From positions 32,001 through 96,000 of IMG/VR virus record IMGVR_UViG_3300037560_000207: 64,000 nucleotides of DNA. One strand, written 5' to 3'. Position 1 is the stretch's first letter, and each line of letters starts with the position of its first letter. The translations under genes were made by a program, and so were the position numbers. This document shows, piece by piece, positions 11,286 to 63,529 of this stretch. The DNA comes from a virus. Below the pieces are notes generated by a model. It saw nothing but the letters and a program-made list of their open reading frames with translations. It was not told the origin of the DNA and did not search any database.

Positions 11286-11535
11286 GTTAATTCCTCTGTT
11301 AGAATCACTCTAATCGCATTTGCCTGAGCTTTCTTTAATGCTGTTGTTTCACTATCACCCTTTTGACGATAGAAGCAATAAAATCCTTCAACGATCCGGC
11401 GATCCTTCATAGCTCGTTCACTAACCTCTTTAACATTTAACGAATCACGTTTACATAAACGCTCTATGCGGTAGCATAAATTCATAGTAATTTTACTTGC
11501 TCGTCTTAGTTCATCACCTATCATATAAATATTCC

Positions 11536-11841
11536 TTATTTTTCTTTGTTAGGAATAAATGATCCACCAGTTGCAGCCATTTGTTCGAGTACCATAGCTG
11601 GAGATGGTTCCCAACCTCCTTTTTTCATGTGTTCAAGATATTTACGATGATGTTCACATAAGATTGCAGCCAATAATGTGTCTTCATTTGTGATACAAGT
11701 ATCCCAAACACGTGTCATACAACCATTCTCAGATGAATAATACGTAAAACCACCAGCTCCATTCGGCTTGCAAAATAAATGATATCCATTCGGCGTAGTA
11801 CCCAAATCTTCCATTTCACTTTTATCACATTTATTACACAT
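11536..11841 (-). CDS. Hypothetical protein
   Basis: ORF with RBS, coupled to the ATPase gene. Confidence 0.5.
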   Translation of the reverse strand: MCNKCDKSEMEDLGTTPNGYHLFCKPNGAGGFTYYSSENGCMTRVWDTCITNEDTLLAAILCEHHRKYLEHMKKGGWEPSPAMVLEQMAATGGSFIPNKEK

Positions 11842-13060
11842 TATTTACCTCCGGTTCCAAAACAGAACCATCCTCAATGATAACTTGACATTCTTTACCT
11901 TTAGATACACGTTCGAGCCAAATCTGTGCATCGGCATCATCAGCCATCTTAGCTACCATTTCCAAATTCTTTTCATCTAGTAACGATCCTTCTCTAATCA
12001 ATAGCACTCGTAATTTTGGATTCATAGCTAATCCTATAGCTACCGAAATACGGATTTGTTGAGAAGTTGAGCACTGAGTGAATGGAATATCTTCGAAAGT
12101 AACGCCATCATCATCAATCGCTAATCCCTCAATAGGGAATTCAGCCTTAGCTAATGCCTTAGCTTTGTGGGAAACTATCTTAGCCATCTGTGTACCCAAC
12201 GATCCTGATTTTTCCCTTAATTCAGTCAATTGCTGATCAATCTTCTCATATACTTTGTTTTCACGCACCTTTGTATTAATACCCTCAGCATCAGCCATTC
12301 TAGTATGAATAGCTTTATCATCAATCGTTTCTTCATTTCCTTCAAGAGACTTCTGTCTTTTCTTGATATCTGCTTTTAATGCTTTGACTTCTTTCTCAAG
12401 CCTTTGGAGTTCATCAATCTTAAATTTTAATCCTCGTTTAGCAGTCTCTATTTTTTGATTATATTCAAGTGCCTTAGCATATTGCTCACCAAGCTCCTGA
12501 ATCGATAATTCCTGGTCAGGCAATGCCCCATCGTGTTTGACCATATTATCCAGGTTGGCTTTTAAATCCTTACCTTGTCGATTGACTATCGTTCTTTGAT
12601 CGAACAAATCTTTATACTGACCATTTACTTTATCAAAATTTAAGCCCACTAATTTCTTAAGAACTTCAGCTTGCTTTTTAGCATCCATCCTGGAAAATTC
12701 TAATGGATCAAAAGCTAATTCGCCTTTTAGTTTATCCAGCATGGCTTGTGGCGATGGAAAAGTTGCACCATCTTTATTTTTAACAACTAAATTAGTACCT
12801 TTTGGTGTAAAAGTGCGAACAACTTCAATTTCCTTTTCTATATCACCTAGGTCTAATTTGATACGAGCCTTCTTCTCTCCCTTTCGTATTGGTTTATCTG
12901 GGATAGAACCTGCCCCATCTAAAGCATATTGTATTGAATCTAGCGCACAACTCTTTCCGGCAGAATTATCACCTCCAATAACCACAAGTGAACCATCAGG
13001 CTTAATATGAACTACTTTTAAATGTTTAACATTCTCTGCCTCTAAAGCAATTATCTTCAT
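11834..13060 (-). CDS. SMC/Rad50-like coiled-coil ATPase (AAA_23-type)
   Basis: N-terminal GDNSAGKS Walker A, long coiled coil, C-terminal signature-like CSTSQ and LLIREGSLLD Walker B region. Confidence 0.85.
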   Translation of the reverse strand: MKIIALEAENVKHLKVVHIKPDGSLVVIGGDNSAGKSCALDSIQYALDGAGSIPDKPIRKGEKKARIKLDLGDIEKEIEVVRTFTPKGTNLVVKNKDGATFPSPQAMLDKLKGELAFDPLEFSRMDAKKQAEVLKKLVGLNFDKVNGQYKDLFDQRTIVNRQGKDLKANLDNMVKHDGALPDQELSIQELGEQYAKALEYNQKIETAKRGLKFKIDELQRLEKEVKALKADIKKRQKSLEGNEETIDDKAIHTRMADAEGINTKVRENKVYEKIDQQLTELREKSGSLGTQMAKIVSHKAKALAKAEFPIEGLAIDDDGVTFEDIPFTQCSTSQQIRISVAIGLAMNPKLRVLLIREGSLLDEKNLEMVAKMADDADAQIWLERVSKGKECQVIIEDGSVLEPEVNNV

Positions 13061-13282
13061 TTCACTATTCTTTCACTAGAGAAATATCATCTAGATTAAA
13101 AAGATGAGGACGATTAACTTGCGGTCTACCTTTTCCAAAATTCAATTCTACCATATTGTGCTCAGGTTCAGAAGCAAAAGCTTTAATTTTTGCTGTCTTA
13201 CCTATAACAGCAGAGCATTTATCACACTTTTCAATTTTTACTACATCTCCAACTTTCATTTCAACATTCATTTTCCTTCTCC

Positions 13283-13816
13283 TTAATCTTCTAAGATTTC
13301 TCGCCAAAAAATAATTTGTCCATTTAGTTCTAATTTGAATTGCGCAGCTTCACGCAATAGATTCGTTTGTTCGGGAAAAGATTCACATCCACCTGGAAAT
13401 ATATCAAAATAAATTATATTAAATCTTTCTTTTATGTTTCGCAAATATTCTAAAATATCTTGATGTACTAAAATAGCCTTTTGATGTGGTATATATGGCC
13501 AAACAAGATCAATTACTGCCTGTTGTTTTTCTACCACAACAATTTCATCAACACCATCTTTATCAGAAACATTTAATAAATCAAAACCTAACCCGAGACC
13601 AGCAATCAAAACTTTCCCATAAGCCAATTCATGTAATTCTTGATATAAATGCCATTCGTTTTCATCCATTGATGTCCAAACCATAAAAGGATCAGAATGT
13701 TCTATCAAAGATGTATTTTGGCCACTATCTTTAATAATTTCAAATCTCCCTATTCTTTGTTCGGGGATATTATCATAAATTATTTTCCAGTGTTTACAAA
13801 ATTCAGAGATCATCAT
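13283..13816 (-). CDS. Class I SAM-dependent methyltransferase (spermidine synthase-like)
   Basis: VLIAGLGLG...IVVVEK...DLV...IYFDIF motifs. Confidence 0.75.
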   Translation of the reverse strand: MMISEFCKHWKIIYDNIPEQRIGRFEIIKDSGQNTSLIEHSDPFMVWTSMDENEWHLYQELHELAYGKVLIAGLGLGFDLLNVSDKDGVDEIVVVEKQQAVIDLVWPYIPHQKAILVHQDILEYLRNIKERFNIIYFDIFPGGCESFPEQTNLLREAAQFKLELNGQIIFWREILED

Positions 13817-14024
13817 TTAAGTTTCTTTATTATTTGTACACGAAAACAAAAAAGCAACCATCCAAATCCTATTCCATAATGCGCGTTCCCTCGACCGATA
13901 AACCGTGGTTTCCACCAAATAGGTTTTCCATAACCCAACCATGCAGCATAGATATAATCATCAAATCGCACACCCATTGCAAAACCTGTTTCGGGTTTAT
14001 TGACATGTATACAAAGAAATTGTC

Positions 14025-14576
14025 TCATTCCCGTTTTTCCCTCAATTCTTCACGAAAAGAAACCAACATAATACCTAATTCACAATCTTTTTTATGAACA
14101 CCAGGATGATATGGTTCCTTATAATTACCAAGCCTCCTAGTACATTCTGGACAAACACCATTTTCAGCTTGTATATCCTTTTCCATATCTTTTATCCACC
14201 ATCTCATTTTCTTTACTTGACCTTTATGCCATTTAACCACTTCACGAATTGTTGTATTTTTAATATCATAACACTCATATATTTTTGATGATCCTACTAG
14301 TGAACTTTCTGTGATATTACAAACCCATTTTGTACCAGGTTTTTTTTGTTTATCTAACCAATCTAACATCTCTGTATCTTCGAGAGATTTAAGATATAAT
14401 CTAAGCAAGGTTTCTGCCCAACGAGGTATTGAACTCCCAATAGTATCATAAAGTTTCCATGAACGATGCTCATAATCATAAATTTCTAAATATAAACCAT
14501 GATGACTTTCTATAATTCGAACCGAACATGATCCTTCTGCACTTGGGACTATAAATTCAAGTAGTTCTTTCAACAT
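14025..14576 (-). CDS. Hypothetical protein
   Basis: Long ORF in the minus-strand gene run. Confidence 0.55.
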   Translation of the reverse strand: MLKELLEFIVPSAEGSCSVRIIESHHGLYLEIYDYEHRSWKLYDTIGSSIPRWAETLLRLYLKSLEDTEMLDWLDKQKKPGTKWVCNITESSLVGSSKIYECYDIKNTTIREVVKWHKGQVKKMRWWIKDMEKDIQAENGVCPECTRRLGNYKEPYHPGVHKKDCELGIMLVSFREELREKRE

Positions 14577-14590
14577 TTTTCATTTTCCTT

Positions 14591-15004
14591 TTAATCAACA
14601 ACAACCTTAACCTTCATAGGAAGTCTCGTTGCCTCTAGAATTGGCAGATTAGCCTCAGTAGGTACATAAATAACCTCACTGTTGCCGTCTTGCAATCCTT
14701 GAATCCAAAGATATCGAAGATATGCCTCATTCTCTCTCAAGCTTTCTCCGATAATCTTATTGGCTTCTGCTACACCTTTCGCCCGTTCAACTTCAGCAGC
14801 AGCAAGTGCTGTTGCAGCTTCCTTCTTAGCTTCAGCTTCTCTAACTGTAATTTGTCGATTCCATTCAGCTTGTTTAAGTTCAGCTTGTCCAGCCAATCCC
14901 TTTTGCCATACCTTATATGTAGGGACTCCCCATAATACAATACCTATTAATCCTATAAATCCAATTATTACACCAATTACTGATATTTCACTTTTCTTAA
15001 TCAT
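14591..15004 (-). CDS. Membrane-anchored SPFH/band-7-like coiled-coil protein
   Basis: N-terminal TM helix, then EAEAKKEAA...AKGVAEANKIIGESL...YLRYLWIQGL...VIYVPTEANLPILEA. Confidence 0.7.
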   Translation of the reverse strand: MIKKSEISVIGVIIGFIGLIGIVLWGVPTYKVWQKGLAGQAELKQAEWNRQITVREAEAKKEAATALAAAEVERAKGVAEANKIIGESLRENEAYLRYLWIQGLQDGNSEVIYVPTEANLPILEATRLPMKVKVVVD

Positions 15005-15221
15005 TTCTTTTTTCCTTTTCTAATGTCCCAATCGCCTCATCAAGCAACTTAGCCCGTTCTCGTTGAGCTTGGTTCATTATATCATATATTTCACTAATTT
15101 CCTCACCTAATCCAGTTACACTAAATTCAGTATCACAAGCAAAACGATACATCTTAAGAATCCGTATTGGATACTCATCATCGGGTGTAGAGTCTACATG
15201 CATATATTCCTGTTTCATATT

Positions 15222-15707
15222 TTATTCCTTCACATTCAGTGTAACCCGTACAAATCCATGTTTGTCGAGATCAGTCTCAAAAGTACCAACAACTTCTTTT
15301 TGTGCAGCCTCTGTTTTTAAACCAACTTTTCTTATATATTCTAAGTATAATTGTCTAGCACTGATTGATGTAGTAATATCTTCTTTAATTTTTTCAGCTT
15401 CTCTTGATATTTTGTCATGTTTTTCTTGTAGGTCAGAAGCAAGACACAAAAGAATATCTTGGGGTCTCGTGACAGGTCTCAATTCATGCTCAACAACCAT
15501 ACCTAAGTCTCCCCAATGTCTAAAATTAATCTTATCTGATTGAACTGACATGAAAGCTACACCATATACAGTGGATACTCTCTTTGGTATACCATACTCA
15601 TCTTTAAAACCAAGACGTTGACTTGTATCAGTAATTTTCCAAAAATAACCCTTAAATGGATTCTTATTATCATACATCCAATCGCCAGTAGAATATTTCT
15701 CTGTCAT
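15222..15707 (-). CDS. Hypothetical protein
   Basis: ORF with RBS in the minus-strand run. Confidence 0.55.
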   Translation of the reverse strand: MTEKYSTGDWMYDNKNPFKGYFWKITDTSQRLGFKDEYGIPKRVSTVYGVAFMSVQSDKINFRHWGDLGMVVEHELRPVTRPQDILLCLASDLQEKHDKISREAEKIKEDITTSISARQLYLEYIRKVGLKTEAAQKEVVGTFETDLDKHGFVRVTLNVKE

Positions 15708-16008
15708 TCTTCTAATCCTTTATTCGAAGATCACGAGCCCATCTGACGTTTGCCACCGTAGTAATCTATAATCCAAACACGCATTCCTTCTTTTATTTCA
15801 TTTAGTTTCATTATGTGGGTTCTTCTCCATGTTTCCTTTTGAATGGACCATAGTATGCATTCCATAGAATATTGCAATTATTAGAACACCATCCTGCTAA
15901 TACCTTTTTACCAAATCGTTTTAAAACATATCCAGTCCACATTTTGGCAGATTTTCCACATCTTACACATTTGGTTGTCTGAGTCATTTTGTATTCCTTA
16001 TCTTCTTT

Positions 16009-16293
16009 TTATAAATCAAAGTTCTTCTTTTCAGCATCCAAAGCAACTTGATAATCAATTAACAATTCACAAGTTAGTCGAATAGCATCTTCTTTTGCTT
16101 TAGATAATGAATATCTTATTGGCCCTTTTCTTACTTCCGCTGCATAATATCCCTTATGTTCACTTGTAGATACAATAGCAAACCATCTATAATTTGAATT
16201 AGAGGTAGGGTGTTGTAAATAACAATATAAGTTAATACTTCCAACCCGCGCACTAGCGTATTCGTCTGATCCTTTCCAATTAATTTTTCGCAT
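16009..16293 (-). CDS. Hypothetical protein, paralogue of 46276..46590
   Basis: RKGPIRYSLSKAKEDAIRLTCELLID vs RFGPIQKSIKAAQQDAQRLAVELLQD. Confidence 0.6.
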   Translation of the reverse strand: MRKINWKGSDEYASARVGSINLYCYLQHPTSNSNYRWFAIVSTSEHKGYYAAEVRKGPIRYSLSKAKEDAIRLTCELLIDYQVALDAEKKNFDL

Positions 16294-16558
16294 TATATTC
16301 CATCATTTCTTGCACTATCTCAACCACTTCCTTACCTAATGAATTAAGTATTTTCCCTTTATTCTTACACTTGTTACATTGGCCATCTAAGCCTCTTAAT
16401 TGAGAATAACCCCAGCAACAATCACATGGTTCAAAAGCCCCATTCGCAGCTTGTGATTTAAATTCTGATGGTAACCATCCACAACTATAACAGCGCGGTC
16501 GTAGAAAATATGAATCAAACTCTACTGCATAATCTTTACATTCAGGACATTGTATCAT
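16280..16558 (-). CDS. Small zinc-finger protein
   Basis: CPEC, CYSC, CDCC and CNKC pairs. Confidence 0.55.
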   Translation of the reverse strand: MIQCPECKDYAVEFDSYFLRPRCYSCGWLPSEFKSQAANGAFEPCDCCWGYSQLRGLDGQCNKCKNKGKILNSLGKEVVEIVQEMMEYNAKN

Positions 16559-16566
16559 TTTAGCTT

Positions 16567-16857
16567 CTACTTATTATACATTTGCCGTTCATATTCTGAT
16601 TCGGTAACATACGTTAAAACTTTACATTCGTCACCTGTTATCTTCATTTCTCCTCGGAAATATAGGCAATATCTCGGTGTTTTATAAAAAACAAATCCAT
16701 TATTATGATGTTCAATAGTCCCAGAAACAATCACTTGGGGGTGCTTTACGATACACTCATTCTTTTCAATATTTTGTGCAGAAGATAATATATAAGGCAC
16801 AGATACAAAAAATATCACAGTCAATATTACTGCAAAAAGATATATACGATTACTCAT
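16567..16857 (-). CDS. Small membrane-anchored protein
   Basis: ATG at 16857 after an AAGGAGG RBS; one N-terminal hydrophobic helix. Confidence 0.6.
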   Translation of the reverse strand: MSNRIYLFAVILTVIFFVSVPYILSSAQNIEKNECIVKHPQVIVSGTIEHHNNGFVFYKTPRYCLYFRGEMKITGDECKVLTYVTESEYERQMYNK

Positions 16858-16939
16858 TACATGTTTCCTCCTTTTAAATAGCAAGACACAAAAGTGTAGT
16901 GTGCGAAGCTCTTGGTAGCGATCCTCTGGTCGCTATCTT

Positions 16940-16968
16940 ATTATACGTCTATCTCTATCCCTTGTTCG
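16940..16968 (-). promoter_or_regulatory. Promoter CGAACAA-N14-CGTATAAT (minus-strand copy)
   Basis: Reverse complement reads tcgaacaa gggatagagataga cgtataat; drives the leftward gene run. Confidence 0.7.
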
Positions 16969-17076
16969 AATAAATCTCTGAATTTTTTTTGATATATGTT
17001 ATGAGACGTAAAAGAGAGGGGGAGAGATGAACTATACGAGGTTTATCCATCTCTTATTCCCCCTGTATAATTATCT

Positions 17077-17772
17077 TTAGAATCCTACACCAGCCCTAAT
17101 AGTAGGCGGTCGTCTGTAATTGATGGCTTCGATAAAGACAAGACGCCATTCTCTATATAGGGAATACACTTCTCTGTAGTATCTCCCTCCGGTGATTGAT
17201 TGATGATACATAGCTTTACAATAGTCATATGCACGCAATTGAGATTTGTTAAGTTTAGAAATATTGGCCTTTGTTCTCTCAAGAACCGTATGCCAGTGGA
17301 TAACTTTATCTCTAGCGGTATCCCACCATTCCTGCGGGCTTGGTTCTCCTTTGGGATGATTTGCTAGACCCTCAAAAAATGACGCAGTGTATTCGCACAG
17401 ATCACCAAATAATAAATCATCTGGATTAACATTTCCGAAACAGTCTTCTAGGATCATTTGAGTTTTATTAGTTGCGGATAAACGTTTCTTTGAATTCTTA
17501 ATAGCTGTTACAGATTTGAGAGGTTTACAAAAGGAAGCGGGCATTTCCCTTAGAACCCCCAATCCTCGACGCCTTCTTCCTATGGTACTTGTGTCCCATA
17601 GATGGCCGAAACTATCATACAATTTTTGACTGATGTCTTTATCTGATAAACCATTCTTAGACATGTGTTCAAGAGCAAGCATCGCTCCTTTGTTGTTACT
17701 TAAATTCTTTTTGTTCATAACCATTTCCTCCAAGCAAGCTAACCAAAGATTTATACGATCCATCGCTACCAC
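17077..17772 (-). CDS. HTH-domain protein sharing its N-terminal domain with 3673..4599
   Basis: LSDKDISQKLYDSFGHLWDTSTIGRRRRGLGV vs LSDKKIQQRLIEECGYKWTLDTIGRRRRAMGV. Confidence 0.65.
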   Translation of the reverse strand: MVAMDRINLWLACLEEMVMNKKNLSNNKGAMLALEHMSKNGLSDKDISQKLYDSFGHLWDTSTIGRRRRGLGVLREMPASFCKPLKSVTAIKNSKKRLSATNKTQMILEDCFGNVNPDDLLFGDLCEYTASFFEGLANHPKGEPSPQEWWDTARDKVIHWHTVLERTKANISKLNKSQLRAYDYCKAMYHQSITGGRYYREVYSLYREWRLVFIEAINYRRPPTIRAGVGF

Positions 17773-18207
17773 GTAAGAGCAAGACGCAAAAGTTAGGTAC
17801 CATAACTGTGCGAAGCTCTGAGAGCAGCCCTCTTGGCTGCTATCTTATGATACGTCTAACTCCTCCATTTATTGCAGGCCCTCCGATTTTTTTTGGCTTT
17901 TTTGTGGGGTAATAACGCGATTGATTTAGGGGTTGAAAAAGGGGTGTACCCCAAAAGGTGGGTGTTAAGGAGAGAAAAAGTGTACATGAAAAGTTGTAGG
18001 TAATGTGAAAAATGAGCCGGGTATGCCTAACCCCCCGCACGGTTATTGGACCCAGATGAGTTATCGGACCGTTTATAAAACGGGCCGCGCCCCTGTTTTG
18101 TCCTATAAACAGATACCCACGCCTACAAAGTTATCGGACTATTCTTGCTCGACTAGCAAGGAAAGTTATCGGACATAAAAAAGATTTTATTTTACTATGT
18201 TATAGGC

Positions 18208-46590: not shown

Positions 46591-47384
46591 TGTCAGTTAA
46601 AATGGATTATGAACAAGCAGCAGAAGAATTACACGCACTTATAAGAGAATGCGACGCAGACACTTTAGCTGCTATATATGAGCAATCATTTGGTGCAGTT
46701 GAAAGCTGTGAACAATCGTGTGAAGGTGATTATTTTATAGCAACATACCACGAAGGGCTAGAACCGAAACCATTCGAACTCAGTGATTTCGAATTCAGAA
46801 AATTATTTTGGTCTCCATTCGAGCAGTACAAACACCTAATTGGGTGTGAATTCAAACCGGTTTCTGTTGAAACATTAGACCAAGGAGACGGACCATTTCC
46901 GTTATTCAAAATCAAATTTACATATGGTGAAGAAATAATAGATGCCTGGGAAGAAGAAGTAGTCACCCCATCATCTATCTTTGTTAATGACGAGCACCCA
47001 CCAAAAGACGAAGAACTACCAAAAAGAGGATACTGGTATGATTACTTGGGCAGATAAAGTTGCTTTTGTTGGTTTGACGGTAAAAGCTGTACCATCTTCT
47101 ATCTCGAAAGGTATTGGTTACCCTTATAGGGTCAAGTTGTGCTATAATCCCGGTCTCTGTTCATTCGGAGATGGACACACCATAGACGAAGCAATTAAAG
47201 ATGCGGCAATATCTATGCCAATTGATTGGACATCCGTAGAACGAAAAATTACTGAACTAGAATGGCAACGGATGTCTCATGTATAAAAGTGAACAAGAGG
47301 GTGGATGTTCCACCTTTTAATCAGATGTGGTGTGTAGCCACTTTACAAAGGGGTAAATATACCCCAATTTTATTGGAGTTTGTA

Positions 47385-47618
47385 ATGAATGAAGTAACGC
47401 TAGTTTCGAATGATGGTTGTGGCCTTCCTATTAGGATTCCGGTTACTGAAGGGACAACGCTGGAGAAGTTTCTGGAAGTCCATTTCGATGGTGACCCGAA
47501 TGAGTTCACAATTCGAGTAAGGGCAAATGGGACTACAGTAGAATGTCATCGGGATTATGTTTTGTGCGATGGAGATCGCGTTAGCCTCGCGCCAAACAAA
47601 ATCGAGGGGGCCGTGTAA
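47385..47618 (+). CDS. Ubiquitin-like (ThiS/MoaD-type beta-grasp) protein
   Basis: 77 aa from the GGAG-preceded ATG at 47385: TLEKFL...FTIRVRANG...DYVLCDGDRVSLAPNKIEGAV; beta-grasp pattern with Gly three residues from the end. Confidence 0.8.
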   Translation: MNEVTLVSNDGCGLPIRIPVTEGTTLEKFLEVHFDGDPNEFTIRVRANGTTVECHRDYVLCDGDRVSLAPNKIEGAV

Positions 47619-47711
47619 CTTCGGTTATGGGTTAGCCGTGGATGTATCTTGGTGGTAATATAATGCTATCATCAAAATGCTTCACAACCTTCTCTAATAG
47701 GTAACACTGCA

Positions 47712-47936
47712 ATGAAGTACGAGGTTGATGTCAAAGAAGTTTGGACGCGAACATTCACAATTGAGTCTGATGTTCCACTAACAATCCAAGAACTTCGAGA
47801 AAAAGCTAATGAGCTACTCGAAGAGGGTGAGGAAGAAGAGGTTCTTGATTATTCTAGTACTTGTGAGCCCGAGGAGTGGCCTGCAAGAATTGTTGAGATT
47901 GTAGATGATAGAAGAGTTGTCTCTTCTATGAATTAA
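47712..47936 (+). CDS. Small acidic hypothetical protein
   Basis: ORF between the Ubl and E2-like genes. Confidence 0.55.
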   Translation: MKYEVDVKEVWTRTFTIESDVPLTIQELREKANELLEEGEEEEVLDYSSTCEPEEWPARIVEIVDDRRVVSSMN

Positions 47937-47949
47937 TTTAAAGGAGAAA

Positions 47950-48204
47950 GTGATGAAGAAGGGTCCAGGAACGAACGAAGATCAGGTAAAGGCTCTCCAA
48001 ACAAAGGTTGGAGATGCTGGTGTAAAGAAAGCTGATGTAATCATTAGTCAATACACCCCGGAAGTAATTGCTCTTGCGTACAAGAGGGTACGTATCAACG
48101 CTGCTAAGAATAAACTTCCGAAGAATGTTACCAAAATGCTTGGTAAACTTTCGGATACGGACGCAGCAATTGTCCGTAATAAGCTGACGCAAGTTAAAGC
48201 GTAA
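47950..48204 (+). CDS. Small basic hypothetical protein
   Basis: AAGGAG RBS; between the Ubl and E2-like genes. Confidence 0.6.
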   Translation: MMKKGPGTNEDQVKALQTKVGDAGVKKADVIISQYTPEVIALAYKRVRINAAKNKLPKNVTKMLGKLSDTDAAIVRNKLTQVKA

Positions 48205-48218
48205 GTAAGATTGAGGAT

Positions 48219-48248
48219 TGGGGGCAGACCGCCCCCATTCCTTTTTTT
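48219..48248 (+). terminator. Rho-independent terminator
   Basis: TGGGGGC-agacc-GCCCCCA followed by ttcc and T7. Confidence 0.65.
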
Positions 48249-48336
48249 GTAGTGGAATGAATCTATGAATAGAATTACTTTGCAACCAATGGCATGTATT
48301 GGATGAGATCAAACATTTGTTCTAAGGAAATTAACT

Positions 48337-49614
48337 ATGAAAAAAGAGCGGCATCCATTAATAAATGAAAACAAAAAACTAATCCGCCGTGCTGCATTCA
48401 AATACTATAATTGGATGATGACAGAGTCGAAACATTCTGCCACCCTCTATGGGGATACAGTCCTGAGCCCCCTACGCGGGACCCCTGAAAATTTAGCCGA
48501 GATGAAAAAATGGATCACACGATTTTTAAATGGAATCAGTCCACGTATCCAAGTTGACCCGTGGGATGGAACAGAATGCATTGGCATCTCCAATCCAGAT
48601 GTATATAAAACCATTGCCACAGGTATGATTCCAAACTTGGGAAATGATATCATCGAAGACATTAATATAGCAATAGCCAGGCTCAAAATAACAGTAGAAA
48701 AAACAACAATCACGCCCTTTTCTTTAAAAGAAGCAATAGAAGAAATCATAATCATCACCAAAGCGTGGGAGAAGGTTAGTTTCCGAGATGACATATTATC
48801 AGTACTCGTGACTGGTGTCAGTCTAGAGGACGAAAATGAAACGGTGTCTCTGGGTGACTTTTGGGTGCATTTAGACCTCACCCATCCTTTAGGCTCACCA
48901 AATGTTGAATCGGTTGACAAAATCGAGTCTGAAAATGGATTCTATCATCCTCACGTATCTGGAGACGATGAACTCTGTGGTGGCGACGGCGATTTGCTAA
49001 TGAATGAAGCTCTCTGTCAAGGAAGATTAGAAGATTATTTCAGAATTGCCGAAGCAGTCCTTCGAACCTATAACAGCAATTCCCCACATGAAAATCTTTG
49101 TGAATGGTCTAATCCTAGCCACGAAGGAGACAACTATTGCGATAGGTGTGAAAAGTGGCGAGACGGAGACAGTACTTATTATTGTGAGGGGTGTGATAGA
49201 ACATACTGTGAAAATTGTGACCTGGGTGGTGGCTGTGTGTGCAATGAATGTGGTGAATGGCGATGTGGTGAATGTAGCTCCTCTTGTAAAGCCTGTAGAG
49301 AGACATCATGTTATGGATGCAATGAGAATCACTGCATCTATTGTCTAGATTCATGTATATCTTGTAATAATCATTGTTGCGAGTCATGCACACAATCCTG
49401 TACTAATTGCGGAGATGTAACCTGTAATGATTGTATGGAAACATGTGAATCCTGCGAAGATAATTGCTGTTCCGAATGCATTGATAAAAATTGTAGCGAA
49501 TGTAACAAGAACATCTGCAAAGAATGCCAGATGACTTGCGATCACTGTGGAATAGCTATGTGTGTTTCTTGTCTAGACGAACACAAGTGTCTGTTAGCTG
49601 AAATTCCTAACTAG
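48337..49614 (+). CDS. Prokaryotic E2-like (UBC-fold) protein with a C-terminal CxxC-repeat domain
   Basis: LGDFWVHLD...YHPHV-SGDDELCGGDG (HPH motif, candidate catalytic Cys214)...RTYNSNSPH, then about 18 CxxC units. Confidence 0.7.
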   Translation: MKKERHPLINENKKLIRRAAFKYYNWMMTESKHSATLYGDTVLSPLRGTPENLAEMKKWITRFLNGISPRIQVDPWDGTECIGISNPDVYKTIATGMIPNLGNDIIEDINIAIARLKITVEKTTITPFSLKEAIEEIIIITKAWEKVSFRDDILSVLVTGVSLEDENETVSLGDFWVHLDLTHPLGSPNVESVDKIESENGFYHPHVSGDDELCGGDGDLLMNEALCQGRLEDYFRIAEAVLRTYNSNSPHENLCEWSNPSHEGDNYCDRCEKWRDGDSTYYCEGCDRTYCENCDLGGGCVCNECGEWRCGECSSSCKACRETSCYGCNENHCIYCLDSCISCNNHCCESCTQSCTNCGDVTCNDCMETCESCEDNCCSECIDKNCSECNKNICKECQMTCDHCGIAMCVSCLDEHKCLLAEIPN

Positions 49615-50333
49615 AGTGAACGATAATCGTGGATTTGTTTGATTAGGGATAGAAATTCGTCGGGCATCTGATTTTGTTTCATACGATTGACAGCTTCAGT
49701 AACCCATTCGATATTGTCTATATCGCCTGCAAGTTCTGGAAATCTAGAGCGTGGCATGATATGGTCAACCCAAGCATTATCCCCTAATATAAGGTTGTCA
49801 CCAGTGTAGGAGCACTTATAGTTTTGGCCCTCTAATTTCGCTAATAAAGCATCAGCATATTTTCTAGACCCTAGATTGGATTGGGAAATATGCTTAAGAT
49901 AACACGATTGACATGTGATATGTAGGTTACCACACCTGGTTACTCCAGGTAATTGCGAGAATCGACCACAACGAACACACAAATCCAGTTTATTAAGTCG
50001 ATCAATACGATTTTGATGGAGATTTCTTAACCTTAACCAACATCTATTACACATCTTTCGACCATCCTCTGATGGATTTTTTCCGCAATAAATACATTTA
50101 CCATCATCTAATCTCTTTGAGCGAACTTTACGATCCTTATCTCGAACCCTGATCTTACACTTAGAACAATGCTTGCTGCCCTCAATAGGTTGATCCCCAC
50201 AGCGAGGACATAAACCTTTAGTAAGCCGTTCTTGATATTGTTTTTTTTGTCTAGCTGTCTCTTTGTCTACGCAGACTTTGCATTTTTTTGCTGGTCGTTC
50301 GTGTGGTTGCCCACAAGCACTACATTTTTTCAT
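49611..50333 (-). CDS. HNH endonuclease with a Cys-rich N-terminus, antisense insertion
   Basis: Eight CxxC pairs, then QNYKCSYTG...VDHIMPRS...DIDNIEWVTEAVNRMK. Confidence 0.8.
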   Translation of the reverse strand: MKKCSACGQPHERPAKKCKVCVDKETARQKKQYQERLTKGLCPRCGDQPIEGSKHCSKCKIRVRDKDRKVRSKRLDDGKCIYCGKNPSEDGRKMCNRCWLRLRNLHQNRIDRLNKLDLCVRCGRFSQLPGVTRCGNLHITCQSCYLKHISQSNLGSRKYADALLAKLEGQNYKCSYTGDNLILGDNAWVDHIMPRSRFPELAGDIDNIEWVTEAVNRMKQNQMPDEFLSLIKQIHDYRSL

Positions 50334-50398
50334 TATTTGTCTCCTGGGTTAATATATTTCTCTAATATATTATACACCAAAGAGACCAAACAAAGGGA

Positions 50399-51337
50399 AT
50401 GAAAATGGAAAAAACGGAAGAATTTTTGAAACCAAAAATGACATTCGGTGATACTTTAAGATTTACAGCCTATGCTTATGCCAAACTTTTATACATTAGA
50501 GATTGTGGGAACACAGAAGTTGCTGGATATGGTGTTACCGCAACCGAAGACCCGTTGTTAGTCACAGATTTCGTTCTTACAAAGCAAGAATGCACCGGAG
50601 TTACATTCGATTTAGACCTAGAAGACGGAGCGGAATATATGGAACGAATGATGGATGCTGGATTAATGCCCTGGATGTATGCTAATCTTCTCATTCATTC
50701 CCACCCCGGCAATTCACCCAACCCAAGCAGCACCGATGAGATCAATTTCCAAAAAGCATTCTCTCATCCAGATTGGGCAATTATGCTAATCATAGCCAAA
50801 GACGACTCTATGTATTGTCGTCTAAAGCTTAATACAGGCCCTGGCGTCGAAAAATTATTGAATGTCCAGGTTGATTTTAGTCAAGATTTCCAGGCTTCCG
50901 ATCGCAAAACATGGAAAATAGAATATGACTCCAAAGTCACCAAACAGATAATCCAGATAAAGGGAACAGCAGGTGTCTTTCCAAAACCAGACGATCCACT
51001 CTGGTGGAATAGAGATGATGAAAAGTGGGTCGGATTCCACCACGTACAACAATCAGAGACTGACCTTGAGGATTTAGAGTGTTACTGGAGCGCTGATGGT
51101 GATGTCCAATATTGGGATGATTACGATGATACGTGGTATACATATGAGCCCAATGCTCAAAAATGGTATATAGAAGACCCAAAGGACAATAATGGGAAAA
51201 TGATGGAAATAAAAACACCTAAAAAGCCATGGACAAATAAAGTTGTAGCATGGGCTATAAAATATGCCAATGAACGTGATTCTATATTAAATGATCAATG
51301 CCCAGAAGAAGAAGTAGAAGTAAAGGAATTAATATGA
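50399..51337 (+). CDS. JAB/MPN+ (Mov34) metallopeptidase
   Basis: TEVAGYG (catalytic Glu) and exact HxHx7SxxD (HSHPGNSPNPSSTD); Trp/Asp-rich C-terminal extension. Confidence 0.85.
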   Translation: MKMEKTEEFLKPKMTFGDTLRFTAYAYAKLLYIRDCGNTEVAGYGVTATEDPLLVTDFVLTKQECTGVTFDLDLEDGAEYMERMMDAGLMPWMYANLLIHSHPGNSPNPSSTDEINFQKAFSHPDWAIMLIIAKDDSMYCRLKLNTGPGVEKLLNVQVDFSQDFQASDRKTWKIEYDSKVTKQIIQIKGTAGVFPKPDDPLWWNRDDEKWVGFHHVQQSETDLEDLECYWSADGDVQYWDDYDDTWYTYEPNAQKWYIEDPKDNNGKMMEIKTPKKPWTNKVVAWAIKYANERDSILNDQCPEEEVEVKELI

Positions 51338-51990
51338 TAAATATCGCGGATCGAAACATCAGACAACAAGAACTTGTTCCCCCAGAAAAACTCGCTACAA
51401 CGCGAGCAACAGTTGTGGGGGTAGGAGCTATCGGTCGCCAGGTGGCTCTTCAATTAGCGGCAATTGGCGTACCCCAAATTCAATTGATAGATCACGATAC
51501 GGTCAAAGTAGAGAACCTGGCAGCACAAAGCTTCTACGAAAATGATCTAGATATTTCCAAAGTCTATGCAGTAGCCGATATTTGTCGAGCAATTAACTCA
51601 GAAATCCAAGTAGTCACTGCAAATCGTAAATTTCAATCAATCCAGTTTAGTGGCGGTGTATGTTTTTGCTGCGTGGACGGGATAGAAACTCGACGCAGAA
51701 TCTTTAATGCAGTCAATCAACGTGCTAGTCTGTTTCTGGACGCCAGAATGGCGGCTGAATACCTTCGAATACTTACCGTATGGGATGATATATCTAAGCA
51801 ATATTTTCCAACAACGCTATTTCCCTCTTCAGAAGCATACAGAGGCTCTTGCACCGCAAAATCTACGATCTATTGCGCAAACATCGCAGCGGGAATGATG
51901 GTAGCACAATTTGCTAAGTGGCTACGCGGATGTGATCTTGATAAAGATATTGATATGAATCTTCTAACGAATGAAATGGGAGTGAAGTGA
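51298..51990 (+). CDS. E1-like ThiF/MoeB adenylyltransferase
   Basis: GVGAIG, LIDHDTVKVENL, CCVD...R, LDARM, and a candidate thioester Cys in RGSCTAKST. Confidence 0.9.
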   Translation: MPRRRSRSKGINMINIADRNIRQQELVPPEKLATTRATVVGVGAIGRQVALQLAAIGVPQIQLIDHDTVKVENLAAQSFYENDLDISKVYAVADICRAINSEIQVVTANRKFQSIQFSGGVCFCCVDGIETRRRIFNAVNQRASLFLDARMAAEYLRILTVWDDISKQYFPTTLFPSSEAYRGSCTAKSTIYCANIAAGMMVAQFAKWLRGCDLDKDIDMNLLTNEMGVK

Positions 51991-52400
51991 TAGGTCCACA
52001 ATTATTAGATGTTCTTAAATTTCGAAAACGTTGCGATCCCATAAGAGATAACTCATGGAGTCTTGATTATCCAATAACACAAAACAATATTAAAATAGCA
52101 ATTGCTAACAATAATCTCCTTCCTCCTAAATCGAATGACATTGTACCATATTCCATTAATCCATTAATCCATGCTGCACGTATAGCATGGTTTATTATTC
52201 ATGGTTGGAATGACCCGATAAACATAGATGTAGGCGTACCATCATTAGGATGTTATCCAAAATGGCCACTAAAAGATGGTAATCATAGGTTCGCCGCAGC
52301 CATTATTCGGGATGACCATTTTATCCTTGCTAATATGTCTGGCGCAGTTAATGAAATCCAGAAATTTTTATGGGAAACAGTAGAAATAGGAATGAAATAG
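51987..52400 (+). CDS. ParB/sulfiredoxin-like N-terminal domain protein
   Basis: HAARIAW...DPINID...LKDGNHRFAAA motif; coupled to the E1 gene. Confidence 0.6.
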   Translation: MIGPQLLDVLKFRKRCDPIRDNSWSLDYPITQNNIKIAIANNNLLPPKSNDIVPYSINPLIHAARIAWFIIHGWNDPINIDVGVPSLGCYPKWPLKDGNHRFAAAIIRDDHFILANMSGAVNEIQKFLWETVEIGMK

Positions 52401-52849
52401 ATATGAGCAATTTACCTACGGACGATTGTTTTGTATTTGTAGTCAAAACAAATTCATATGCCGGTAATTTTGAACGCCAAATGTGTAGTTATATTACCGG
52501 TGAATATGGTGAATGTGAAGTTGGTGACAAAGAAGCTGAAATATTTAAAGCTGAATGTCCCAATAATTATAGGTTTAAAGATTCGGTTATTTCCTTTCCT
52601 GACGAACATGGCTGTTGGCGTCCAGCAACTATGTGGGGTCATAAATGTAATGATGTAGCAATCTTTTTTGAAACTAAACCCACTGAGACACAACTTACTT
52701 TAATGAGAAATCGTGCTAGGAAATTTGCTATAATGACCAATCCATCTGATGGAAAGCATAAACATATCACCATCCATGGTTTTGAATTAAGAAAATATTG
52801 TATTAAACGTATTGATACAGAAATCACTGTGTGGAAAAAGAATGAGTAA
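52370..52849 (+). CDS. Hypothetical protein
   Basis: ORF in the rightward run. Confidence 0.55.
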   Translation: MGNSRNRNEIDMSNLPTDDCFVFVVKTNSYAGNFERQMCSYITGEYGECEVGDKEAEIFKAECPNNYRFKDSVISFPDEHGCWRPATMWGHKCNDVAIFFETKPTETQLTLMRNRARKFAIMTNPSDGKHKHITIHGFELRKYCIKRIDTEITVWKKNE

Positions 52850-60354: not shown

Positions 60355-61902
60355 ATGGAAAATTTCAAAACAAACATCTCTGACTATATTTGTTCTGGTC
60401 ATGCATTATTGCATATTGATACATTTGAGAAAGACAGAGCTATTGCTGAAATAGCCGAAATAGCTAAAACTATTGATAGGAAAATTATAATTTGGAGCGT
60501 TAGTCAAGGTTGGGTTGACGAAAAAGGTGCACCAGTTTGTAAGGTTAAAGCAGAAGATTCAATTGAAGATCAGCTAAAAGCTATTATCGATTTCGGAGAA
60601 GGTATCATATGTATTCTTCAAGATTTCGGTGTATATCTAAAATATGAAACATATCCTAACTACGACGTTACAATAAGTTTGTTAAATGATCTTCGTAAAA
60701 TTATGGCATCGGTTCGTCAATCTATTATCTTTGTAGGCCCTGGCTTCGAAATACCACTCTCTTTAACACATGATATAGCACAAATAGATTTTAGTTTACC
60801 AGACGAAAAAGCAATAGAAGAAAGAATAAGGTTCATCTGTAAAGATGTTTCGAAAAGTGATGGGGATAAATTTAAACTTAACGAGGCAATACTCCCTGAA
60901 ATAATCTTCGCTTGCAAAGGAATGACCTCAAGTGAAGTTGCCGATCGTGTAGCGTTAAGCCTAAGAAAACATAAAGATTTAAATAAAGATGCAATCAAAA
61001 CTTTAGTAAGAGAAAAAGCTTCAGTAATCAATTCATCTGGTCTTTTACAATATATTGAACCACGCACAAAGGGGCTGTCAGATGTGGGAGGCTACGAAGT
61101 TCTTAAAAATCATGTGAAACTCGATAAACCATGCTTCACCCAAGAAGCTAAGGAATTTGGAATAGAATTTCCTCGCGGAATTTTAGAAGTAGGTGTCCCG
61201 GGTTGTGGGAAAACATTAATGTCTGAAGCAATAGCGGCTGATTTTAACTTGCCATTAATTGCATTCGACGTGGGAAGTATAATGGGTTCTCTTGTTGGTC
61301 AATCCGAAGCCAATATGAGACAAGCTATTAAAATTATTGAAAGTGTTGCTCCATGTGTCCTCCAGGTAGACGAAATTGAAAAAGCATTTGGAGGCAATAA
61401 TGATCTTGACGGTGGCACTTCTAAAAGAACCTTCTCTAGTTTCCTTAAATGGATGAGTGACAGAGAATCTGCTGTTTATATTGTTGCGACCGCCAATGAT
61501 GTTAGTAGTCTTCCGGTTGAGCTTCTACGGTCTGGGAGATTTGACGCGCTGTTCGGTTTTGATCTACCTAACGAAGATGAAAGGCAACAAATATTTGATA
61601 TCCACATAACTAAAAGGGGTAGGAGTAGTAAATCTTTTAATACTAAGAAATTGTCCCAAAAGGCAATTAATTTTGTAGGAGCTGATATAGAACAGGCCGT
61701 TAAAATGGCACTCAAAATCGCATTTGCTCAGAAGAAACAATTAAAACAATCCCATATTGAACTAGCCATCGAAAAAATCGTTCCCTTAAGTAAGGTAGAA
61801 CCTGAAAAAATTAAAGCAATTCAAGAATGGTGCCAAAAACATACACGGATGGCAAATCCCCAAGAAAAAACTGAAACAACCAGAAAAGTTTCTCTTGATT
61901 AG
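60355..61902 (+). CDS. AAA+ ATPase (Ycf46/SpoVK-like, degenerate N-terminal module plus intact classic AAA domain)
   Basis: GVPGCGKT Walker A, LQVDEIEK Walker B, ATAN sensor, PVELLRSGRFD second region of homology. Confidence 0.9.
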   Translation: MENFKTNISDYICSGHALLHIDTFEKDRAIAEIAEIAKTIDRKIIIWSVSQGWVDEKGAPVCKVKAEDSIEDQLKAIIDFGEGIICILQDFGVYLKYETYPNYDVTISLLNDLRKIMASVRQSIIFVGPGFEIPLSLTHDIAQIDFSLPDEKAIEERIRFICKDVSKSDGDKFKLNEAILPEIIFACKGMTSSEVADRVALSLRKHKDLNKDAIKTLVREKASVINSSGLLQYIEPRTKGLSDVGGYEVLKNHVKLDKPCFTQEAKEFGIEFPRGILEVGVPGCGKTLMSEAIAADFNLPLIAFDVGSIMGSLVGQSEANMRQAIKIIESVAPCVLQVDEIEKAFGGNNDLDGGTSKRTFSSFLKWMSDRESAVYIVATANDVSSLPVELLRSGRFDALFGFDLPNEDERQQIFDIHITKRGRSSKSFNTKKLSQKAINFVGADIEQAVKMALKIAFAQKKQLKQSHIELAIEKIVPLSKVEPEKIKAIQEWCQKHTRMANPQEKTETTRKVSLD

Positions 61903-61910: not shown

Positions 61911-62522
61911 ATGTCGGGATTTATTAATTTAATAGGGAAAAGATTTGGTAAATTGATTGTTATTCGAAGAATGAATAATAATAAAAGCAATAAAATAACA
62001 TGGCTATGTAAATGTGATTGTGGTAATAAAAAAATAATTTGTGGTGGGGACTTAAAAAACGGACGCACTCAAAGTTGTAGATGCCTACTTATAACACATA
62101 GTCTTAGCGACCATAACTTATATCCTATATGGAACCAAATGATACAAAGATGTACAAATATTAATGATAAATATTATAATATTTATGGTGGCCGAGGAAT
62201 CAATGTTTGTAAGAAATGGAGAGAATTCCCGAGTTTTCTTAGAGATATGGGAAGTGGGTGGAAACCCGGATTGACTCTTGAACGAACTAATAATAAACTA
62301 GGATATTTCAAAGATAATTGCGAATGGGCAACTCAGAAACAACAACAGAGAAATAGGCGAGACAATCATTTGGAAACTTATAATACTAAAACACAATGCC
62401 TAGCAGCCTGGGAGGAAGAAACCGGTATTAACCAAAGTACTATTCGATATAGACTCAAGGTTGGTTGGTCAATAGAAAAAGCCTTAACAACACCAGTTCA
62501 AAAAAGGAGAAAAAAGAAATGA
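61911..62522 (+). CDS. HNH-type endonuclease
   Basis: WLCKCDCGN...MIQRC...YGGRGINVCKKW...TLERTNNKLGYFKDNCEW. Confidence 0.85.
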   Translation: MSGFINLIGKRFGKLIVIRRMNNNKSNKITWLCKCDCGNKKIICGGDLKNGRTQSCRCLLITHSLSDHNLYPIWNQMIQRCTNINDKYYNIYGGRGINVCKKWREFPSFLRDMGSGWKPGLTLERTNNKLGYFKDNCEWATQKQQQRNRRDNHLETYNTKTQCLAAWEEETGINQSTIRYRLKVGWSIEKALTTPVQKRRKKK

Positions 62523-63529
62523 CTACAACAGTAAAAGAAAAACCAAAAGTAAAAGACGACACAATAAATTTATTTGATGTCGGCGCGCTAGTAAATCTTA
62601 AAATTACCACATGGAGTGCGCGCAAAATGATTACCCGCGCAGATTTAGTCAGGGTTGGATACGATCCAGATAGTCTCCCGGAAGAAATCTGTAATCTTGG
62701 TCGCAAATTACTGGTACCCAAATCGGAAATTCAAAGTCTAACTCAAATCGAACAAAGAGCAAGAAAAGCTCTTGAAAGATTCTCAGTACCATTTGGAATA
62801 GCCTCAGCGCACTTCATTCCTATAAAATTATTGCCCACCGTAGAACAACAGCTAAAAGAACTTAAGAAAGAGTTTTTTACTAGAATTGATAGTTTCATTA
62901 CTCGTTTTAGTGACCTGATTCAAGCGGTCAAAACCTCGCATCCAGATTTCTGGGAAAAATGCTTAAAAAATCACTATCCACCCAACCCCAAAGCTTTACG
63001 GAGTTACTTCCAATTTAATTGGTATATATTCAAAATCTCAGGCATGGATTCTATAAAAGAAACCACTATTGATGAAGTTGTTTCCAAACAAAAGGTCCAA
63101 GATGAGCGAACACAAGAACTGCGAAATCAAATGCAAGTTGAGGTAGGTGGATTTGTTGAAGAATACGTATGCACAATGAGAAATGAAACCATACGATTTT
63201 GTAACCTTATGGAAGCTCGCATCAATGGAAAAGCTTTTGGTGATGAAAACGAAGCTAAAAGGCTTACACCAAAATCCATCGCTTGTTTCCGAAGCTATCT
63301 TGATAGGTTTAGACAAATGAATATATTCGGGGACAATGAAGTTGAAAAAATGCTCTCCGAATTCCGGGATACATTCTTAGACTCTAATATAGCTCCAAAA
63401 GATTTCGAGTCGGCTACTATCAAAAATAGCGTAACACAAGCACTAGAGGCTATTAGAAACAAAGCAGCGTTAGAAGGCTCAAGTAGCAGTAGGTTTATAG
63501 GTGAACTTAAGAGAAGGATAATTTTGTAA
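62519..63529 (+). CDS. DUF3150-like helical protein
   Basis: LVNLKITTWSARK...LGRKLLVP...IEQRARKALERFSVPF...FIP recalled as DUF3150-like; start taken at 62519 after AGGAG. Confidence 0.55.
   Translation: MTTTVKEKPKVKDDTINLFDVGALVNLKITTWSARKMITRADLVRVGYDPDSLPEEICNLGRKLLVPKSEIQSLTQIEQRARKALERFSVPFGIASAHFIPIKLLPTVEQQLKELKKEFFTRIDSFITRFSDLIQAVKTSHPDFWEKCLKNHYPPNPKALRSYFQFNWYIFKISGMDSIKETTIDEVVSKQKVQDERTQELRNQMQVEVGGFVEEYVCTMRNETIRFCNLMEARINGKAFGDENEAKRLTPKSIACFRSYLDRFRQMNIFGDNEVEKMLSEFRDTFLDSNIAPKDFESATIKNSVTQALEAIRNKAALEGSSSSRFIGELKRRIIL

Follow-up and report, generated by a model that had tools for sequence, protein, structure and literature searches.

Does a bacterial virus carry the complete machinery for tagging other proteins with a ubiquitin-like protein (Ubl), and if so, what might it do with it? 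To our knowledge, Ubl-like conjugation in bacteria has so far been shown for three systems, all of them host-encoded: Type II CBASS (cyclic oligonucleotide-based antiphage signalling system), Bil and Bub. Bil and CBASS have been shown to act in anti-phage defence. The question arises from a 64,000-nucleotide stretch of DNA, here called the window, that comprises bases 32001-96000 of the 181,360-bp IMG/VR virus record IMGVR_UViG_3300037560_000207. An earlier note on this DNA had proposed that a phage encodes here a Ubl, an E2-type conjugating enzyme, a JAB peptidase and an E1-type activating enzyme. We find a complete Ubl/E2/JAB/E1 set, which we refer to as the cassette, by means of hidden Markov models, predicted folds, invariant catalytic residues and conserved synteny. 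Judging from the sequences and the modelled structures, we consider it likely that the phage cassette is a working Ubl protein-conjugation system of a distinct, unannotated family.

The virus record carries direct terminal repeats and has a CheckV completeness of 100%, and the surroundings of the cassette are phage-like, with genes for a head maturation protease, an NAD-dependent DNA ligase and an RNA ligase, three tRNAs, and many small open reading frames (ORFs) on one strand. These features together indicate that the cassette is correctly described as phage-encoded and that it resides in a complete phage genome. All four genes lie where they had been placed, with corrections to the starts of the Ubl and E1 genes, and a fifth gene lies among them. 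The five genes are as follows.

47385-47618, plus strand: Ubl precursor of 77 residues with a predicted beta-grasp fold, ending KIEGAV (recognised from homologues, an AlphaFold2 model and Foldseek).
48337-49614, plus strand: E2-like conjugating enzyme of 425 residues (invariant residues, AlphaFold2 model and fold matches).
49611-50333, minus strand: HNH homing-type endonuclease of 240 residues, Cys-rich at its N terminus (HNH_4, phrog_1035 and Cas9-HNH-like matches).
50399-51337, plus strand: JAB/MPN+ metallopeptidase of 312 residues with Glu40 and H100-S-H-x7-S110-x-x-D113 (motif, Prok-JAB and PADLOC JAB).
51334-51990, plus strand: minimal ThiF/MoeB-type E1 of 218 residues with GVGAIGRQ, Lys76, Asp115 and Cys173, the codon of the last at 51850 (PF00899 and alignments).

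The start of the Ubl is placed at the ATG at 47385, inside a 118-residue frame (47262-47618), by a ribosome-binding site and by the starts of its homologues. Among 54 homologues with identities of 65-85%, Gly75 (codon at 47607) is invariant, and the tail that follows it is unconserved and ranges from 0 to 13 residues, being Ala-Val in the window. The bacterial homologues, which are present in 59 of the loci described below, end in TPTKIEGA followed by 0-20 variable residues. Gly75 is the predicted C-terminal glycine available for activation, following an equally predicted removal of the tail. An AlphaFold2 model built on the homologue alignment (predicted local distance difference test, pLDDT, 84.6) has the order beta-beta-alpha-beta-beta-beta, and its top Foldseek matches in the PDB are ubiquitin, SUMO, NEDD8, Caldiarchaeum ubiquitin and MoaD, all at a probability of 1.0 and with template modelling (TM) scores of 0.5-0.64. 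The predicted fold agrees with the earlier proposal of a beta-grasp Ubl ending in KIEGAV. The Ubl is also the most conserved part of the cassette, as expected of a modifier.

The E2-like protein carries the motif HPHVSGDDELC at residues 204-214, that is, HPH-x7-Cys214. Canonical E2s such as Ubc13 and UbcH5 have an HPN-x7-Cys motif, and the spacing in the two motifs is identical. H204, P205, H206, L213, C214 and G216 are invariant across 21 metagenomic homologues (40-51% identity), which have a GRLEDYF...TYN block in common as well, along with over 40 aligned C-terminal cysteines. In 58 more distant family members, the H-P pair, the Cys and the Gly never vary, and at least 90% of these members have the second His as well; HPH...C-x-G, GRLxDFF and TYN are retained together with a shorter CxxC array. 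An HPH/Cys E2-like protein had been suspected at this position, and the invariance of these residues in the homologues bears the suspicion out.

The AlphaFold2 model of the E2-like protein (pLDDT 74) consists of an N-terminal helical hairpin (residues ~8-121), a UBC core (residues 129-262) and then short hairpins along the Cys array. In the model, the chain of the core runs from one helix through a meander of four strands and the HPH loop into a pair of helices. It aligns over the whole domain with UBE2S (7ahf_A; Z 8.0, root-mean-square deviation 3.3, 117 of 149 residues) and over the whole catalytic domain (116-117 residues) with Ubc13 (Z 7.0-7.2). When the same domain was compared with the ESM Atlas, unnamed viral and planctomycete clusters came first (TM 0.80-0.82), followed by UQ_con (0.60) and Prok-E2_D (0.59). 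The predicted model, in which residues 129-262 align with both enzymes from end to end, supports the UBC fold that had been supposed for this protein. Two other fold searches contributed little: in a VIA-align comparison of the E2 with all PDB representatives, matches of helical hairpins to residues 9-125 so dominated the outcome that nothing could be learned about the UBC core, and a search of BFVD returned low-TM matches only.

Beyond the core, the C-terminal 164 residues of the E2 (262-425) contain 40 Cys and 18 CxxC motifs, and this 18 x CxxC array is conserved in all full-length relatives examined. Its matches in a profile search of PDB sequences are to FYVE, PHD and B-box proteins, and these are weak (E 0.01-0.1) and partly compositional. 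The earlier note had seen no canonical E3 in the region. This is literally true, but the conserved CxxC array of the E2 may do the job of an E3. In one lineage of relatives (L003, L004, L007 and L008), the E2 is split into a 320-residue UBC part and a Cys-array ORF of ~120 residues (7001-7963 and 7968-8309 in L003), so that the zinc array may be able to work as a subunit in its own right.

The JAB protein contains the exact HxHx7SxxD motif described for it, in the form H100-S-H-x7-S110-x-x-D113, together with Glu40, and its catalytic motif is conserved in 12 phage and 8 bacterial copies. The profile matches are modest: Prok-JAB (PF14464) scores 23.7 bits, just below the Pfam cut-off of 25, and the PADLOC JAB model matches weakly at E 1e-4. 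No match was found among PDB sequences. A Trp-rich C-terminal extension of ~150 residues exceeds in length that of the bacterial copies examined, and no fold match to it was found in the ESM Atlas.

The listed frame of the E1 is 230 residues long (51298-51990), and its start is probably the ATG at 51334, in agreement with homologues of 218-219 residues. This start overlaps the JAB stop codon as ATGA, and the JAB and E1 genes are accordingly predicted to be translationally coupled. The E1 matches PF00899 (ThiF) at 85 bits against a cut-off of 28.1. In an alignment of 65 phage and bacterial sequences, G29, G31, G34, K76, D115 and C173 are kept in 64-65 of the 65; C173 itself, within the motif CT[AS][KR], is present in 64, and R7, R10, R138 and R145 are invariant or nearly so. 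The profile score and the near-invariance of C173 uphold the description of this protein as a ThiF/E1 with a candidate thioester Cys. Placed by eye, C173 presumably lies where MoeB Cys187 and ThiF Cys184 lie. The nearest solved sequences, all distant, are those of UBA7, UBA5, PaaA, ThiF, MoeB, MccB and BubCD, and the top NCBIfam matches are to ThiF and MoeB.

That the four genes fall within 4.6 kb was correctly noted, but their description as co-oriented neighbours has to be amended, since the minus-strand HNH gene separates E2 from JAB. Most relatives lack the HNH gene. In the window, L005 and L015 it occupies the E2-JAB gap, in L012 the gap that separates JAB from E1, and its homologues in the cassettes of other phages are 37-45% identical. 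Given that it is mostly absent and sits in differing intergenic gaps, we regard it as a mobile insertion and not as a component of the pathway. It behaves like a homing endonuclease that targets the conserved Ubl operon.

Is the cassette a chance assembly, or does it recur? Related phage loci came from two sources: homologues of the E2 led to six contigs, and an alignment of E1 led to twelve IMG/VR loci. The order Ubl-E2-JAB-E1 is kept on one strand in all 15 related phage loci (~12 of them distinct), in several of which the Ubl gene directly precedes E2. Identity across these loci falls to 29% for E2 and 35% for the Ubl, and several of the relatives that bear the cassette are complete genomes of 165-180 kb. 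A search of viral contigs with the whole E2 gave no related loci, and among 50,697 GenBank phage records we found neither DNA-level relatives of the cassette nor a protein match to its E2. In a quick, unrooted tree of E1, all 12 sequences from phages group in a single clan, separate from the 53 of bacterial origin (Shimodaira-Hasegawa-like approximate likelihood ratio test 100, branch length 0.67). The separate phage clan therefore suggests that the phage lineage has held the cassette for a long time and did not acquire it recently.

Distant ThiF genes also occur in GenBank crAss-like phages and Xanthomonas jumbo phages. In one deposited phage, the crAss-like 'bajarodcaudo virus 1' (PQ006092.1, L155; 1373-4669), a 433-residue protein has the pattern HSHV...CTGSG...AL..G, which resembles the active-site block of the E2, with an hhalign probability of only 3.5%. 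It is followed by a 401-residue protein with a weak Prok-JAB match (21.6 bits) and by an 'E1 enzyme family protein'. A distant E2-JAB-E1 triad may exist in crAss-like phages.

The E2 family extends well beyond these viruses. When the E2 core was compared by phmmer with 1.84 billion representative proteins, at least 909 clusters, defined at 50% identity, were recovered at E <= 0.001. Bacterial loci were located in a species-genome collection with a degenerate DNA pattern for GRLxDFF-x8-TYN, which picked out at least 120 stretches, nearly all from Planctomycetota and including the isolate Allorhodopirellula solitaria CA85. We tested 80 of these loci by phmmer with the proteins of the window and of L018, a bacterial relative. 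Of the 80, 78 had an E2, 71 a JAB, 59 an E1 and 59 a Ubl; where a gene was missing, a contig or locus end was mostly the cause. Wherever a locus extends far enough, the gene order is always Ubl-E2-JAB-E1. The recurrence of the four genes in phage and bacterial loci excludes their co-occurrence by chance. Between the phage and A. solitaria, identity is 37% for the Ubl, 26% for E2, 38% for JAB, 47% for E1 and 29% for a further protein, DUF2997.

That further protein belongs to a larger cluster. On the 260-kb contig L018, a same-strand run comprises Ubl (ThiS-like), E2, JAB, E1, DUF1257, DUF2997, a 73-residue gene and an AAA ATPase, and is adjoined by BrxC/BrxD-like and helicase genes. Both A. 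solitaria and an 8.3-Mb Planctomycetaceae contig have one or more large serine recombinases, then DUF1257, DUF2997, AAA, another gene, Ubl, E2, JAB and E1, in this order. A tyrosine integrase also lies beside the recombinase(s) of the latter contig, and in A. solitaria the cluster is followed by an IS66 transposase and an AbiEii-like ATPase. Large serine recombinases, one of them with a tyrosine integrase, were seen directly upstream of the DUF1257-to-E1 cluster in two unrelated Planctomycetota genomes (L153, 6260-8407; L154, 3391-7811), an arrangement suggestive of a small integrative element whose main cargo is the cluster. One Phycisphaeraceae chromosome (G008, the genome of L092) has two copies of the E2 family ~440 kb apart, at C1:693265 and C1:1137815, which is consistent with a multi-copy mobile element.

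The phage genome itself holds counterparts of the additional genes of these clusters. Two are in the window.

60355-61902, plus strand: classic-clade AAA+ ATPase (FtsH/PAN/Cdc48-like), 28% identical over 487 residues to the AAA gene of A. solitaria.
62465-63529, plus strand: DUF3150 protein (PF11348, E 5e-21).

DUF1257 and DUF2997 follow past the end of the window, at genome positions 96623 and 101273, and the AAA/DUF1257/DUF2997/DUF3150 set as a whole is located 8-18 kb downstream of the cassette. In L078, L080, L081 and L103, DUF3150 is found between the AAA gene and the Ubl, and the AAA/DUF2997/DUF1257 trio is present in 6 of the 18 bacterial loci that extend at least 5 kb upstream of E2. 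DUF1257 and DUF2997 occur 5-18 kb downstream of E1, on the same strand, in five of five related phage genomes and in one of 14 control genomes; the five are kin to each other and count as one observation. Since the phage genomes are interrelated, independent support for the AAA link comes from L018 and from the Planctomycetota clusters. The AAA ATPase is a probable partner of the cassette and DUF3150 a probable member of the same extended set, and from the gene linkage we infer a functional link between the AAA ATPase and the cassette. The earlier note had overlooked both the large family on integrative islands of Planctomycetota and the recurrent connection with this AAA set.

How might the system work? 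We propose that the Ubl would be made as a 77-residue precursor and that the JAB metallopeptidase would cut off the residues after Gly75. The minimal, probably homodimeric ThiF-type E1 would then adenylate Gly75 and take up the Ubl as a thioester on Cys173, from which it would be handed on to Cys214 of the E2, eight residues past the HPH, and placed by the E2 on lysines of target proteins. Binding of the target or of a partner, an E3-like task, would probably fall to the N-terminal helical hairpin and the C-terminal 18 x CxxC zinc array of the E2, and the tag may also be reversible through JAB. The cassette would probably act together with the AAA+ unfoldase, DUF1257, DUF2997 and DUF3150 encoded downstream; in many Planctomycetota the corresponding genes make up a single cluster with it.

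Given that three bacterial conjugation systems are already established, we compared the cassette with each of them and with related gene sets. It resembles Bil most closely in layout, in that both consist of four separate genes for Ubl, E2, JAB deubiquitinase and E1, in the same order and without a separate E3, and both occur on mobile or defence-like islands. In Type II BilA, a short tail without conservation follows a conserved Gly, after which the JAB enzyme BilC trims the protein (bioRxiv 10.1101/2023.09.26.559546), and the cassette Ubl shares the feature of a conserved Gly plus tail. The activating enzymes differ. BilD has ~450 residues with an inactive and an active adenylation domain, a mobile Cys domain and a zinc site, whereas the cassette E1 has 218 residues and one adenylation domain, and the PADLOC BilD model matches it in the adenylation core only (positions 181-319 of 453, 25.5 bits). 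BilB uses a Cys and a downstream His, whereas the cassette E2 keeps HPH-x7-Cys and has in addition the zinc array and the helical hairpin; no PADLOC model, including that of BilB, matched it at E <= 0.1. Unlike Bil, the cassette is phage-borne and recurrently linked to an AAA+ ATPase set.

Bub is likewise a bacterial operon of Ubl, E1, E2 and peptidase with shown or predicted conjugation. Bub (formerly 6E/DUF6527) forms oxyesters and has an E1 without a catalytic Cys, a peptidase-E1 fusion and a separate serine protease, BubE (PMC11601596). In contrast, the cassette has an invariant Cys in both E1 and E2 and a separate JAB gene, and BubCD matches its E1 at E 1e-4 only. Type II CBASS has E1, E2 and JAB activities as well, and the PADLOC models 'E1-E2' and 'JAB' are the top defence-library matches of the cassette. 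However, in CBASS the E2 and E1 are fused in one protein, Cap2, which conjugates a CD-NTase and not a Ubl, whereas E1 and E2 are separate genes in the cassette; with the Cap3 model the score is 16.8 bits, where the cut-off lies at 200, and no CD-NTase match was found among the neighbours scanned. With group 6d/PRTRC of Iyer, Burroughs and Aravind (2006), the cassette shares a Ubl that stands alone and has a C-terminal Gly, along with an E2-like protein, a JAB and an E1-like protein on mobile elements. It differs from group 6d, whose E2 is without the usual His and relies on another one downstream and whose JAB has a JAB-N domain. The E1 reaches 25.1 bits with the PRTRC_ThiF model (TIGR03736), for which the cut-off is 144.75, and no PRTRC A-F or ParB model was matched.

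Eukaryotic and archaeal-type systems offer two further points of comparison. The cassette E2 is like canonical UBC proteins (PF00179) in its predicted fold from end to end and in its HP[N/H]-x7-Cys spacing, and unlike them in having no sequence-level match, a His for Asn as third residue of the motif, and large N- and C-terminal additions. Like ubiquitin, SAMP and Pup with Cdc48, PAN and Mpa, the cassette is a tag system coupled genetically to a classic-clade AAA+ ATPase. Unlike in those systems, the cluster showed no gene for a proteasome or protease, and here the coupling comes from gene linkage only.

Since the tests for membership in Bil, Bub, CBASS and PRTRC failed, we conclude that the cassette is a distinct variant of prokaryotic Ubl conjugation that stands outside all four. 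Among the four cassette proteins, the curated libraries recognise only the ThiF-type E1 and the JAB; the Ubl and the E2 of the window have no match in Pfam, NCBIfam, PADLOC or PHROGs. The earlier note had located the novelty in function and substrates rather than in the gene families. That view needs revision, given that the E2 and Ubl families are without a model in these libraries and that the four membership tests gave negative results. The kind of system is nonetheless already known, and the same cassette is common in bacteria. Among the papers covered by our search we found none on a phage-encoded complete cascade, although the Burroughs and Aravind surveys (2011, 2012) may list the operon type; the same holds, with the same limit, for a system of Ubl, AAA, DUF1257 and DUF2997.

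Several observations weigh against the reading of the cassette as a conjugation system working with an unfoldase. All of its folds are predictions. The E2 has no Pfam match at E <= 0.01, PF00179 and the Prok-E2 models included, none of the 58 distant family members matches PF00179 or a Prok-E2 model, and the top solved Foldseek matches of the E2, although nearly all UBC or UEV domains, are weak (E 0.04-0.3). The E1 lacks a second adenylation domain, an inserted Cys domain, a UFD and a CxxC zinc site, and it has NL-A-A-Q (Ala/Thr) where the usual NLxRQ motif has Arg. Such a bare ThiF/MoeB-like adenylation domain gives no guarantee that a thioester passes to E2. At 24.2 bits, the Ubl of L018, a bacterial relative, scores above the Pfam threshold for ThiS, which shows that the fold is of common descent. 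As to the unfoldase, the AAA link is found in only about one third of the bacterial loci, and in the phages the AAA set lies kilobases from the cassette and could be syntenic by descent alone.

If the cassette does conjugate, what is it for? A role in conflict among phage, host and other mobile elements is most likely, and this could take more than one form. As possible targets, the earlier note had guessed at host defence proteins, proteins of the phage itself or rival phages. The cassette is part of a long run of small genes on one strand that includes the ligase and RNA-ligase genes, away from the virion genes, and is linked to a PAN/Cdc48/FtsH-like AAA+ ATPase, both of which would suit host takeover or counter-defence, with the phage tagging host defence or housekeeping proteins and the ATPase unfolding or extracting them. 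We entertain this only tentatively, given that the same system on bacterial islands cannot serve phage takeover there and that an adjacent AAA gene is confined to the minority of bacterial loci mentioned above. It is likewise possible, though short of probable, that the cassette is a weapon of the Bil type, which would tag structural proteins of superinfecting or co-resident phages or of satellites and so lead to superinfection exclusion, with the host itself left alone. Bil protects by tagging the phage tail fibre (bioRxiv 10.1101/2023.09.04.556158), and the bacterial relatives of the cassette are found on defence-island-like integrative islands with recombinases, an AbiEii-like ATPase and BrxC/BrxD-like genes. 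On the other hand, the phage E1 clan is old and separate, so the cassette is no recently captured defence island, and neither its E2 nor its Ubl matches a PADLOC model.

A non-conjugating pathway is quite unlikely in our judgement. Under such a scheme, a ThiS/MoaD-type Ubl would be thiocarboxylated as a sulfur carrier for the modification of a cofactor, tRNA or DNA base, with the 'E2' and JAB as accessory proteins. The minimal ThiF/MoeB-like E1 with its top NCBIfam matches and the ThiS score of the L018 Ubl would fit, as would the radical-SAM genes a few kilobases downstream in related phages and the annotation of ThiF genes of other phages as 'thiamine biosynthesis protein'. However, every locus of the family retains a JAB and an E2 whose HPH-x7-Cys is invariant, and the Ubl ends in a single Gly with a disposable tail and not in a free Gly-Gly. 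Moreover, no rhodanese domain is fused to the E1, and no ThiG, MoaE or sulfurtransferase was present among the Pfam matches of the flanking genes examined. That the genes are a decayed or hitch-hiking set, at present functionless in the phage, is very improbable: although an HNH gene has entered the cassette and the E2 is split in the L003 lineage, all catalytic residues are intact, the gene order is kept across phages whose E2 identity is as low as 29%, and HNH genes are found in intergenic gaps only. A conjugation cassette under a role in conflict remains our preferred reading.

Some further features of the cassette region complete its description.

47350-47365, plus strand: GC-rich hairpin (GGGG-loop-CCCC) followed by a T-run, just 5' of the Ubl ribosome-binding site (terminator-like match).
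47950-48204, plus strand: conserved 84-residue ORF between Ubl and E2, with homologues in relatives.
48219-48237: terminator-like hairpin 3' of the 84-residue ORF.

A hairpin like the first of these is found at the same place in L002 (~5826-5845) and L003 (~6668-6685); it may be the terminator of the preceding gene, or an attenuator or regulatory element that separates expression of the Ubl from that of upstream genes. Homologues of the 84-residue ORF lie between Ubl and E2 in L002, L005, L011 and L013 and are absent from the other relatives. The E1 is followed by a 137-residue protein (51987-52400, plus strand) whose DGNHR motif recalls ParB/sulfiredoxin-type nucleases and which has no family match. 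The idea of a PRTRC system to which this protein gave rise was dropped, as no ParB or PRTRC model was matched and the L002 homologue is elsewhere, ~2 kb further downstream, so that it is not a fixed neighbour of the cassette. Two genes past E1 is a 159-residue protein (52370-52849, plus strand; phrog_23621), the L002 copy of which (6545-6988) stands directly before E2. This gene contains the only DNA similarity of the cassette region to cultured phages, a Cronobacter GAP31-like stretch (75% over 99 bases). On a larger scale, the G+C content rises from ~0.35 in positions 1-18000 of the window to ~0.42-0.46 in 18000-64000, and the gene strand switches near 17-18 kb; the shift and the switch mark a module boundary in the phage genome.

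The finding bears on how widely, and to what end, prokaryotes and their viruses tag proteins. The E2 family comprises at least 909 clusters and has no model in the libraries searched, and thousands of genes are therefore labelled 'hypothetical'. In its motif, with an HPN-type loop and the same Cys spacing, the cassette E2 is nearer to eukaryotic E2s than the Bil E2 is. With this motif, a zinc array of its own and the link to a Cdc48/PAN-like ATPase, the system is a candidate in which to study how unfoldases that read tags came to be coupled to Ubl tags. Many eukaryotic viruses use protein tagging offensively, and the retention and diversification of a full machinery in a phage lineage raises the question of whether bacterial viruses do so too. 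The presence of the extended cluster in the cultured Allorhodopirellula solitaria CA85 makes the question testable. A specific and, as we see it, still doubtful answer is that the phage has a tag-and-unfold pathway, in which the Ubl cascade, through an E2 with a zinc-finger substrate adaptor of its own, would mark selected proteins of the host or of rival phages and the AAA+ ATPase, with DUF1257, DUF2997 and DUF3150, would recognise the tag and extract or unfold the marked proteins. If this were true, the pathway would be the bacterial-world counterpart of ubiquitin and p97, used as a weapon in conflicts of phages with hosts and with other phages and shared with the mobile elements of Planctomycetota.

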